This document shows, one piece after another, positions 8,516-31,541 of a DNA stretch of 31,541 nucleotides. The stretch comes from Clostridia bacterium (GTDB lineage Bacteria; Bacillota; Clostridia; Oscillospirales; CAG-382). The notes under the pieces are model-generated. The model saw only the letters and a list, made by a program, of their open reading frames with translations, was not told the DNA's origin and did no database searches. A program made the translations under genes and the position numbers. The stretch is from contig JAFYOG010000160.1 of assembly GCA_017560285.1 (NCBI GenBank), positions 1-31,541 on the forward strand. The letters run 5' to 3'. Within the stretch, counting starts at the first letter, position 1. Each line of letters starts with the position of its first letter.

Positions 8516-8845
8516 ATGGAAAATAAAGTTTTTGCAAAGAACGACAGCGGTTTTGTTTGCGGTAATTGCGGCAAAGAGGTACCCCCCTTGGGCTATACCT
8601 CGCGTAATCATTGCCCATATTGCCTTTATTCCCGCCATCTTGACGTTAACCCAGGGGACAGAGCATCCGATTGCGGCGGGCTAATGCGCCCCGTTGCCGT
8701 TACGTCCCACCCCAAAAAGGGCTTTGTTATCACCCACAAATGCACCCTTTGCGGCAGCGAACGGAACAACAAAATGCAAGCCGACGACGATACTTCCCTG
8801 CTTATAAAGCTTACCAACCCCTATTTTGCGGAGGAATATAAATGA
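8516..8845 (+). CDS. RNHCP domain protein (putative Zn-binding)
   Basis: FVCGNCG, RNHCPYCLYSRHLD, PGDRASDCGGLM, HKCTLCG. Confidence 0.88.
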   Translation: MENKVFAKNDSGFVCGNCGKEVPPLGYTSRNHCPYCLYSRHLDVNPGDRASDCGGLMRPVAVTSHPKKGFVITHKCTLCGSERNNKMQADDDTSLLIKLTNPYFAEEYK

Positions 8846-29040: not shown

Positions 29041-29045
29041 ACTAT

Positions 29046-29060
29046 TGACAATTATTACTA
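29046..29060. promoter_or_regulatory. Putative Fur/Per box
   Basis: TGACAAT-T-ATTACTA matches the 7-1-7 Fur box TGATAATnATTATCA at 11 of 14 positions and lies at the predicted transcription start. Confidence 0.55.
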
Positions 29061-29074
29061 TTAAGGTGTTTTAT

Positions 29075-29473
29075 ATGATAAAAGAGCGCAATACGAAGCA
29101 AAAAACGGTAATTTTGTCCGCAGTGCGTTCCGCAAAAATACATCCGACGGCAGAACAGGTTCACGCTATGGTGTTGGCAGATATGCCCAACATAAGCCTT
29201 GGTACGGTTTACCGTAACCTAAACCATATGGCAGAGCTTGGTCAGATAAGGCGCATTTCGGTTACCAATTCGCCGGATAGGTTCGACGGCGATTTATCGC
29301 CCCACCACCATATTTGCTGCAGCGAATGCGGCGAATTTAACGATAGGTTCGACCTACCCTACGACAAAAGCCTTGATACCCTTGCCGAAAAGAAAACGGG
29401 GTACAAAATTACCCGCCACGAAACCGTTTTTTACGGCTTGTGCAAGAACTGCAAGAAATCAATTAAAAATTAA
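29075..29473 (+). CDS. Fur family regulator, probably PerR-like
   Basis: [38 protein letters not shown]-terminal CKNC. Start set at ATG 29075 (RBS AAGGTG). Directly upstream of rubrerythrin. Confidence 0.92.
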
Positions 29474-29505
29474 AATATCTATATAACAAAAAGGAGAACT
29501 TTACT

Positions 29506-30051
29506 ATGGAACTCAAAGGCAGCAGAACAGAACAAAATCTTATGACAGCTTTCGCAGGCGAATCTCAGGCTCGTAACAAATACACCTATTACGCAAGCGA
29601 AGCTAAAAAAGCAGGCTACACCCTTATTGCCGACATTTTCGAAGAAACCGCAGGCAACGAAAAGGAACACGCAAAGCTTTGGTTTAAGCTTTTGCACGAC
29701 GGTAAGGTTCCCGATACCGCTACCAACCTTTTGGACGCAGCTTCCGGCGAAAACTACGAATGGACCGAAATGTACGCTGAATTTGCAAAGACCGCAAAGG
29801 AAGAAGGCTTCGACCATATCGCATATCTCTTTGAAGCAGTAGGCAAGATCGAAAAGGAACACGAAGAAAGATACCGCGCAGTGCTTGAAAAGCTCAACGC
29901 AGAAACCATTTTCGTTTCTGAAGAAGTTCAGGTTTGGATCTGCACCAACTGCGGTCATATCCACGTTGGCAAGAAGGCTCCCGAAATGTGCCCCGTTTGC
30001 CAGCATCCCAAATCCTACTTCCAGAAGAAAGTAGAAAACTACAAATATTAA
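29506..30051 (+). CDS. rbr: Rubrerythrin
   Basis: [41 protein letters not shown], rubredoxin-like WICTNCGH...CPVCQHP. RBS AAGGAG. Confidence 0.97.
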
Positions 30052-30058
30052 TCAGTTT

Positions 30059-30091
30059 ATCGGCAGGGCTAAACGCCTTGCCGATTTTTTT
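30059..30091 (+). terminator. Intrinsic terminator after rbr
   Basis: ATCGGCAGGGC / GCCTTGCCGAT stem (one G-U pair), then a T-run. Confidence 0.82.
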
Positions 30092-30120
30092 GCAAAAAGA
30101 AAAAGCCCCAAGGGGCAAAT

Positions 30121-30171
30121 AAGCAAAAAATAACTCCCAACCGTTAATCTATTTGTTACGGTTGGGAGCTA
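30121..30171 (-). terminator. Intrinsic terminator oriented for a minus-strand transcript
   Basis: Perfect 11-bp stem CTCCCAACCGT / ACGGTTGGGAG. On the minus strand it extends by a G-U pair and is followed by UUUUUUGCUU. Confidence 0.72.
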
Positions 30172-30223
30172 TTTATTTTCTGTCTTGATATCCAACATCA
30201 ATTTTAACCTCTCTTTCATAAGA

Positions 30224-30506
30224 TAGCCAAAGCATTGATACTTTAACCAACCCAAAGGGGCTGAACCGCAATGCTTTTCGGCTTATTTTAATTTCTCGTC
30301 TTCGCAATACGCTCGTATTGCTTCATCCTCCGCATTAAAAACGCTCGAAATTCAACCCCTTTGGGTCAAAGACTTTTTAATTAGAAGATTTTTGCTTAAT
30401 ACAAGGAAAATACGGAGTGAATACCAACGTATTCACGAGTACTTTGACGACGTAGTAACAGAAATCTACAATTAAAAAGTTGATTCAAGTTTCAATGCTT
30501 TGGCTA
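30224..30506. repeat. 283-bp element bounded by 23-bp inverted repeats, with nested hairpins (MITE/REP-mosaic-like or structured RNA)
   Basis: TAGCCAAAGCATTGATACTTTAA (30224-30246) pairs 21/23 with 30484-30506. Inner inverted repeat 30250-30265 / 30351-30366 pairs 15/16. Long imperfect hairpin at 30372-30480. Confidence 0.75.
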
Positions 30507-30770
30507 GGCATCACTTCTGCATTTTTCGCTTTTCGATATACCTTATTAATAGCTTGACCCGTAAGTGGGACGATCTTTGGTTATGAATAAGTTACTTCAT
30601 CGAAGCTTTAGCCCTTTGTGGGAAATGATTTTTGGAGATCACTTTGGTTTGCTTGCTTCTCTTCTTTCTTGCGTTGCCCGTTAAAGTAGTTTTGTTTTTG
30701 TTCCCCTAAAGCTTTACGCTTTTTTGGGGGATTTCTACTTTTTCATTGGACTCACCCTTTCTGTGTCTAT

Positions 30771-30799
30771 ATATTACCATACATATACCCCTATTGCAA
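30771..30799 (-). promoter_or_regulatory. sigmaA-type promoter firing leftward into the gene-free region
   Basis: Minus strand TTGCAA (30799-30794), 17-bp spacer, TAATAT (30776-30771) with extended TGn. Confidence 0.68.
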
Positions 30800-30883: not shown

Positions 30884-30912
30884 TTGACAACGCAGGTGAT
30901 TTTTGATATACT
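30884..30912 (+). promoter_or_regulatory. Near-consensus sigmaA promoter (P1)
   Basis: TTGACA (30884-30889), 17-bp spacer, TATACT (30907-30912) with extended TGn. Confidence 0.7.
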
Positions 30913-30955
30913 GATTACGTTGGGTGCTTCGCATTCGACTTTTTTATTTTTATTA

Positions 30956-30984
30956 TTGAAAAACAAACTATTATGTGATATAAT
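30956..30984 (+). promoter_or_regulatory. sigmaA promoter (P2) of the PAP2-like gene
   Basis: TTGAAA (30956-30961), 17-bp spacer, TATAAT (30979-30984) with extended TGn. Confidence 0.75.
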
Positions 30985-31029: not shown

Positions 31030-31541
31030 ATGAAAAAGGCTTTTAGCTTTGTAAAAAAGGTTGTTATGGGGCAGGTTAATTGGGTAATGGGGCATAAATA
31101 TGCCTTTATTTTGCTGTTTTGGCCTATACAAACGGTGGTTTACGAGCTTATGCGCATTGCCTTTATGCACGTGCCCGTGGTTATGATACACAGCCCCTTG
31201 GACGATAAAATTCCCTTTTGCGAATGGTTCGCTATCCCCTATTACGTTTGGTATTTCTATATAGCGTCGGTGCTGTTTTACACCATTTACCACGGCAAGC
31301 GGGAATTTTTGCGGGCGGCGTTCCTTGTTATCGGCTGTACCCTTATTCCTATGATATTTTTTGTTATTATGCCCAACGGCATAGAATATTCCATGCGCCC
31401 CGATTTTGAAGCATTGGGCAGAGATAATTTCTGTATCGACCTTGTAAAGGGCATTTATGCAGGTGATTCCCCACCAAGAAACGTTATGCCAAGCATACAT
31501 TGCTCGGTGGCGCTTGCCATTGCCATGGGCTATACCAGGGC
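31030..31541 (+). CDS. PAP2-superfamily membrane protein (AUR1/IPC-synthase-like), runs off the window end
   Basis: Not in the ORF track; translated by hand: MKKAFSFVKK...IHSPLDDKIPFCEWFAIPYYVWY...GIYAGDSPPRNVMPSIHCSVA. NxxPSxH motif, hydrophobic segments, RBS GAAAGGGG. Confidence 0.85.
   Translation, partial: MKKAFSFVKKVVMGQVNWVMGHKYAFILLFWPIQTVVYELMRIAFMHVPVVMIHSPLDDKIPFCEWFAIPYYVWYFYIASVLFYTIYHGKREFLRAAFLVIGCTLIPMIFFVIMPNGIEYSMRPDFEALGRDNFCIDLVKGIYAGDSPPRNVMPSIHCSVALAIAMGYTR

Follow-up and report, generated by a model that had tools for sequence, protein, structure and literature searches.

A short TA-bounded insertion with a conserved three-way fold in uncultured Clostridia, probably a non-autonomous DNA transposon of a previously undescribed family

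The window, by which we mean the whole stretch of 31,541 nt analysed here (contig JAFYOG010000160.1, assembly GCA_017560285.1), carries a 283-bp element at 30224-30506, located within a short transcription unit on the minus strand. To the left of this unit, positions 29045-30051 hold a Fur-family regulator gene followed by rubrerythrin, an order that is the same on all same-species contigs extending far enough, and for both strands termination is provided by a cluster of convergent terminators at 30059-30177. The host unit of the insertion (30095-30799, minus strand) begins at a promoter comprising TTGCAA (30794-30799), a spacer of 17 nt and TAATAT (30771-30776), continues through a Shine-Dalgarno (SD) sequence with a 3-codon ORF (30735-30746) and a further SD (30208-30213) with a 9-codon ORF (30169-30198), and finishes at terminators located at 30125-30177 and 30105-30116. 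Between the left end of the element and the downstream SD of the 9-codon ORF there are 10 nt, and the element should be co-transcribed with the unit. In most species of the genus, the 5' and 3' parts of the unit are conserved and no element interrupts them. Regarding the unit itself, it runs from promoter to terminator with no long ORF: a strong SD with an ORF of 3-4 codons stands at the 5' end, the middle varies, with an SD-like-CCAATG motif repeated in some species, and the highly conserved pair of SD and 9-codon ORF (MLDIK...) precedes a covarying terminator. The unit occurs in most species of the genus, often as two copies on different contigs. When the intact unit of 15 relatives was compared with Rfam, the terminator hairpin drew spurious miRNA-like matches and nothing else was matched. 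The unit may act as a decoy or be a small RNA rich in SD sequences. Further to the right, on the plus strand, the region 30884-30984 contains two strong sigma-70-like promoters with extended -10 elements (TTGACA-17-TATACT and TTGAAA-17-TATAAT) upstream of a PAP2-like gene at 31030. A terminator-like hairpin (30919-30939) with a T-run is located between these two promoters, and the region may produce a short leader transcript or act as an attenuator.

Homology with copies in other genomes begins at base 30224 and ends at base 30506, which are exactly the borders drawn by an earlier reading of this DNA from its letters alone (hereafter, the sequence-only reading). Both ends read TA, as that reading had stated; the left copy (30224-30225) and the right copy (30505-30506) correspond to a single TA in the empty allele, and the 283 bp consist of a 281-bp insertion with its TA duplication. 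The left terminal inverted repeat (TIR; 30224-30251, plus strand) starts with TAGCCAAAGCATTG and is 28 nt long, with 89% complementarity to the right TIR (30479-30506, minus strand), with which it pairs. The outer stem had previously been described over 23 nt, with 21 matches and the first 15 perfect; these values are reproduced, and the stem extends to 28 nt. The TIRs are conserved in the 21 copies of subfamily A, across which the first 14 nt, forming the tip, are nearly invariant. Inside the outer stem, a first domain (30250-30366) is closed by the stem 30250-30265 / 30351-30366 (16 nt, 94%) and holds a small hairpin, GCAATAC..GTATTGC, at 30304-30321. The second domain is a long hairpin (30371-30481) with an apex hairpin at 30417-30436 and a conserved core at about 30399-30448 that is common to all three TIR classes described below. 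Both the inner stem and the long hairpin had been recognised earlier, as had a third, partial copy of the TIR, CAATGCTTTTCGGCT, at 30269-30283. This degenerate internal copy is present because the left end embeds a mini element: the left module (30224-30283, plus strand) consists of a TIR, a hairpin and the internal copy, and is equivalent to the free-standing minis of 59-62 nt with a degenerated right TIR. Coding capacity is nil, in line with the earlier reading, the sole ORF of 40 aa or more that overlaps the element being a 44-aa TTG frame that runs out across the boundary. Rfam returned nothing credible for the element, either for the whole window at the gathering threshold or for the region at E up to 10, and a literature search with the TIR string produced chance primer matches only.

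Same-species contigs from other samples were picked by an exactly identical window rubrerythrin, and allele lengths were measured between the invariant anchors AACCTCTCTTTC and GGCATCACTTCTGC. The filled allele (window, L267, and L269) measures 289 nt between the anchors, the empty allele (L270, GCA_017554875.1, and L273) 8 nt, consisting of ATAAGA-TA only, and a third allele with a remnant of 26 nt (L268 and L271) 32 nt. The empty site in L270 and L273 reads ATAAGA-TA-GGCATCAC, and when the element is taken out of the window with one TA kept, 1250 of 1254 positions are identical to L270. The filled and empty alleles differ by 281 bp, therefore the TA is duplicated. It can be observed that the element is a discrete 281-bp insertion with a duplicated TA, present or absent among strains of one species. 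In the L271 remnant, a CTTT microhomology marks the junction between the left 21 nt and the last 5 nt. Both remnant alleles carry the flank TTAGGA where others read ATAAGA, and since the full-length copy of L269 also has the TTAGGA flank, the site was probably first empty, then filled, and then reduced to a remnant. A second locus lies upstream of a MatE gene, where the target TA is situated between a -10 box and an SD. Here, G111 is empty (L088, G111:C20 near 43572; TTC-TA-AGCC), while G108 (L046/L087, G108:C55) and G114 (L047, G114:C16) are filled, with TA on both sides. The search for empty sites proposed by the sequence-only reading thus provided an exact empty allele at the window locus and a second one in another genus, and target-site duplication is evident from filled and empty sites at both loci. 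Among genus-level relatives of the window locus no exact empty site could be read, the flanks being too diverged.

The host genome, a metagenome-assembled genome (MAG) of 1.77 Mb in 237 contigs, contains one copy of the element. Dispersed copies with unrelated flanks are found in relatives, as in G002 and G114. Long forms of 283-298 bp (72-85% identity) were present in 14 of the 60 species of the genus, as well as in 8 of 13 species of a second genus (g31) of the same family, and copy ends are sharp with unrelated flanks in 6-25 aligned copies, which answers in the affirmative the question of copy number raised by the sequence-only reading. G114 yields at least 19 matches at 91-97% identity, of which about ten are cut off by contig ends, mostly after some 141 nt of the element, as is typical of a young repeat disrupting an assembly with k = 141. 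G002 has at least four long copies together with many short ones. A 14-mer TIR scan of genome contigs hit a real copy at 1 of 120 loci among the matches listed, the others being chance matches; in metagenome contigs the 24-nt TIR pattern gave 0 matches and the core pattern identified 2 contigs, and viral contigs gave 0 matches.

The family is modular. Besides the long form, which occurs in both genera, there are free-standing minis of 59-62 nt (TIR, hairpin, TIR) in G028, G080, G108, and G114, a left-module-only form of about 88 nt that ends at GCAATAC in several genomes, a 146-nt derivative in G002 (L021), and a 170-nt derivative in G114:C37 (L220). The last of these is a deletion between the two related internal AATAC..GTATT hairpins. 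Furthermore, the termini fall into classes. In subfamily B (G010, G034, and G028; elements L031, L032, L033, L034, and L265) the TIRs read TAGAGTGAGTTAAG... and the interior is shared with subfamily A, and a third TIR class, TAGGATGAAGGGAATTG..., again with a shared interior, is present on the metagenome contig L264. The hairpin core of about 110 nt is the best-shared interior part across the three classes, and was seen with other TIRs in G010/G034 and on the metagenome contigs L264/L265. In comparisons between classes, conservation is higher in the interior than at the termini, which is unusual for MITEs (miniature inverted-repeat elements); among class A copies it peaks in the first 14 nt. 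In the six subfamily-B copies that were read, the flanks look like T-TA...TA-A, which suggests a TTAA-like target.

Folding of both strands, another check put forward by the sequence-only reading, revealed strong structure beyond chance on each of them, with energies of -95.8 kcal/mol for the plus-strand RNA (z = -9.6) and -107.7 kcal/mol for the minus-strand RNA (z = -10.2), and 0 of 200 shuffles as good in either case. Conservation of pairing was analysed by projecting the MFE structure of the window on an alignment of 25 copies, comprising 21 subfamily-A copies, drawn from two genera, and 4 subfamily-B copies, with controls in which the 3' partners were slid by 1-3 columns. Paired cells amounted to 87.3% across the 25 copies versus 34-47% in the slid controls, a percentage that is inflated by the structure being taken from one alignment member; compensatory (double) changes, the count of which is not inflated in this way, were observed in 31 of 98 pairs versus 7-14 in the controls. 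The stem 30250-30265 / 30351-30366 was paired in 87% of cells and the small hairpin 30304-30321 in 99%. Within the basal helix of the long hairpin, compensatory changes occurred in 11 of 28 pairs, and RNAalifold recovered the same covariation at this base. The three-way fold is preserved through compensatory substitutions without strand bias: G-U and A-C cells are about equally frequent (126:98), and the constraint is therefore strand-symmetric. Such symmetry fits selection for self-complementary DNA, or for transcripts of either orientation, over selection for one functional RNA strand. The two-state RNA or single-stranded DNA switch that had been offered as an alternative, based on pairing of the left TIR with the internal copy, did not survive. 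Forcing this pairing costs 24-27 kcal/mol relative to the MFE, so no balanced two-state switch is available, and the candidate is rejected both on energetics (about 25 kcal/mol) and on ancestry, the internal copy being a relic of the embedded mini.

We consider the element to be a non-autonomous DNA transposon (MITE) belonging to a previously undescribed family of an uncultured gut/rumen Clostridia lineage, with a rough probability of 0.85. The suggestion of a MITE or mosaic repeat inserting at TA, made by the sequence-only reading, is borne out by the dispersed and bounded copies, the two empty sites with TA duplication and the modular forms. Insertion sites biased towards TA-N-S-S, which often bring an end directly up to an SD (TA|AGGAGG), belong to the same picture, as do neighbouring genes of unrelated function. 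Against it stand the single copy of the host genome, an interior that is better conserved than the TIRs between subfamilies, and, at the MatE locus, element copies more alike (97%) than their flanks (88-92%). The family is undescribed and its kind is well known. Four of the five MITE features tested were found, namely small non-coding size (283 bp), terminal inverted repeats (28 nt, 89%), target-site duplication and dispersed copies; the missing one is a cognate autonomous IS sharing the TIRs, for which 164 genomes of the family were searched. In these genomes no TIR pair was located at IS distance (0.7-3 kb), and the 3.4 kb between two copies on G114:C37 carry housekeeping genes, for a pyridine nucleotide-disulphide oxidoreductase and an amidohydrolase. 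As to the type of enzyme, the first candidates suggested by TA duplication are those of the IS630/Tc1-mariner type. IS630-type DDE_3 genes were present in 4 of the 164 genomes; three of these copies have readable TIRs, which start with TACATCGTT..., TACTACATTG..., and TATATATAAC..., all unrelated to the element TIRs, and none were found for the fourth. DDE_3 had no match in G114, G108, G002, G080, or G000, and DDE_3, DDE_Tnp_1, and rve had none in the copy-rich G114, G002, and G080 or in the host genome, all incomplete MAGs, which agrees with the earlier remark that no transposase lies nearby. Of the features expected for an IS630/Tc1-mariner MITE, TA duplication was observed, and TIR similarity together with DDE_3 in element-bearing genomes was not. 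The check for a transposase with the same TIR was therefore negative. Among the outcomes that the sequence-only reading had named as speaking against mobility, no matching transposase was indeed found, while copies and empty sites do exist. It should be noted that the genomes searched are MAGs of 73-96% completeness and that IS elements usually fail to assemble or bin in MAGs, so the missing match does not establish absence.

The life cycle of such a transposon can be outlined as follows. A DDE transposase acting in trans would recognise the TIRs over 14-28 nt and make a 2-nt staggered cut at TA; the enzyme would be IS630/Tc1-mariner-like, or of another type giving 2-bp duplications. In a transcript, the TIRs would zip the element into a closed three-way junction, with the flanking leader and SD remaining contiguous and free. 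Insertions in 5' UTRs and operon spacers may survive because the junction would leave the SD free in this manner, and purifying selection would clear insertions from coding sequence. Internal deletions, occurring at microhomologies as well as between the two related internal hairpins, would subsequently degrade the copies.

Several known repeats are comparable. Correia/NEMIS elements of Neisseria are non-coding elements of 107-155 bp with TIRs of about 24-26 bp and TA duplication; their size classes differ by an internal segment, and they are often found just upstream of genes, co-transcribed and forming long stem-loops. To our knowledge, they have no cognate transposase. The present element is like them in being non-coding, in its TA termini and duplication, in TIRs of about 24 bp, in the existence of long and short forms, in its position near gene starts and in its strongly paired transcripts, a likeness that rests on traits and claims no sequence relationship. 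In contrast to Correia/NEMIS, it is larger (283-298 bp versus 107-155 bp) and forms a three-way junction whose two hairpin domains are conserved independently. One core is combined with at least three TIR classes, and the host genomes, in Clostridia, have few copies (1 to about 20 each). RUP is a MITE derived from IS630-Spn1, and its TIRs match a known IS630-family element. Like RUP, the present element is a Firmicute MITE inserting at TA; unlike RUP, the readable IS630-type TIRs in its family are unrelated and its copy-rich genomes are without a DDE_3 gene. BOX elements lack the transposon hallmarks of TIR plus target-site duplication, and REP/BIME are short palindromes (20-40 nt), also with neither, mobilised by a RAYT (Y1) gene. 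With BOX and ERIC-type mosaic repeats the element shares modularity with variable module combinations, intergenic location and stable RNA folds, but unlike BOX it has TIRs, TA duplication and exact empty sites. Its two internal AATAC..GTATT hairpins look REP-like, but the whole element has TIRs and a target-site duplication. According to the review by Delihas (PMC2229807), bacterial MITEs exhibit TA termini, TIRs of about 24 bp, long and short forms and highly paired transcripts, and RUP of Streptococcus pneumoniae, which inserts at TA, is thought to be mobilised in trans.

A reading that goes beyond selfish DNA is unlikely. It would make the element a mobile RNA module of 5' UTRs that serves the host, or would have mobilisation guided by the structure of DNA or RNA and not by TIR sequence. 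It is based on the shared core of about 110 nt, at least three classes with different internally complementary termini, the compensatory helices and the SD-adjacent copies, including those at essential genes. Quite unlikely, in our view, is domestication, in which the module spreads as DNA and is kept because its transcribed three-way junction serves the adjacent gene. It could then act as a 5' stabiliser of the mRNA against 5'-exonuclease, as an RNase III processing site, or as a modulator of translation initiation or translation insulator beside the SD. The position of the ends argues for such a role. For 78 non-redundant element ends, with all TA sites in the same loci as background, an SD core was present within 8 nt at 17 ends (22%) versus 3.1% of random intergenic TA ends (p = 3e-10), and many junctions read TA followed directly by AGGAG(G), with the start codon 6-9 nt further on. 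The arrangement in both L047 and L054 is promoter, element, SD, gene; in the former, the element begins about 3 nt past the -10 box and would form the very 5' end of the mRNA. Moreover, compensatory changes keep each hairpin domain, the core is common to three TIR classes, and Correia/NEMIS elements have been proposed as RNase III targets (PMC2229807). However, the SD bias is largely explained by a general target preference that is also visible at ends without an SD. After the TA, position +1 is A or C, and positions +2 and +3 are G/C at about 70% of ends versus 48-50% expected, a bias that persists when SD-containing ends are removed (p about 1e-3). The simplest reading is that the transposase prefers a TA next to a G/C-rich triplet, TA-N-S-S, of which TAAGGAGG is a natural instance in AT-rich intergenic DNA. 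In addition, the adjacent genes are housekeeping genes with no common function. In a Pfam scan of 20 of them, 18 matched functionally unrelated families and 2 had no match; gyrA, type III glutamine synthetase, carB, transketolase, MatE, a small alarmone synthetase with a RelA/SpoT domain, radical-SAM enzymes and an ABC ATPase are represented. It follows that the element is no leader of a particular pathway. Long forms adjoin genes by either end and in both orientations, the comparison of G-U with A-C cells indicates no strand preference, strains of the species differ at the window locus, and some copies are reduced to remnants, all of which also count against domestication.

The MatE locus raises the idea of an inverton, in which the 28-nt inverted repeats would flip the interior and thereby alter expression of the neighbouring gene; we regard it as very improbable. 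At this locus, the same TA is occupied by the element in G108 and in G114, but in opposite orientations; the copies show 97% identity and the flanks 88-92%. The asymmetric TIR position 15 keeps its genome-relative state in both, as an in-situ flip predicts, yet it is the one informative position, and a second position does not track. The pair could have arisen by an in-situ flip or by repeated hits on a hot spot; independent insertion into a preferred site accounts for it equally well, and a single informative TIR position cannot decide between the two. Opposite orientation at one site was seen only between two species. Neither is there a conserved promoter inside the element: the window copy contains TTGACG-17-TACAAT, a 10/12 match that is confined to this copy, other copies having no -10 box, and an internal promoter was accordingly rejected. 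No invertase gene lies beside copies among the regions whose neighbouring genes were read, and the empty sites, TA duplication and dispersed copies are features of a transposon. Were the element indeed used by its hosts, inversion of the segment enclosed by the TIRs, of the kind that may distinguish G108 from G114, could act as a switch.

A stand-alone structured ncRNA gene or riboswitch-like leader that merely resembles a repeat is scarcely credible: very strong predicted structure on both strands and conserved pairing would suit it, but there is no Rfam family match, copies of either orientation stand beside unrelated genes, the existence of presence/absence alleles with a duplicated TA contradicts it, and no promoter or terminator of its own is conserved across copies. 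A regulon leader or riboswitch was rejected on the same grounds of unrelated adjacent genes, both orientations and no Rfam match.

As a MITE family, the element documents recent activity in uncultured gut/rumen Clostridia, where the biology of mobile elements is almost unknown, and the evidence is unusually clean, with empty, filled and remnant alleles within one species. For annotation, such elements break assemblies, mimic structured RNAs or terminators, and sit between promoters and ribosome-binding sites, for example that of gyrA, so they should be masked or annotated before ncRNA or regulatory prediction. The preference for TA with a G/C-rich triplet makes SD sequences natural targets and could help to identify the missing transposase. 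Finally, on contig C176 of G000, a palindrome at 8765-8787, AAGCCGAAGCATTGCTTCGGCTT, is followed by a T-run and placed like a bidirectional terminator; it resembles two fused TIR tips, and may be a chance match or an old remnant.
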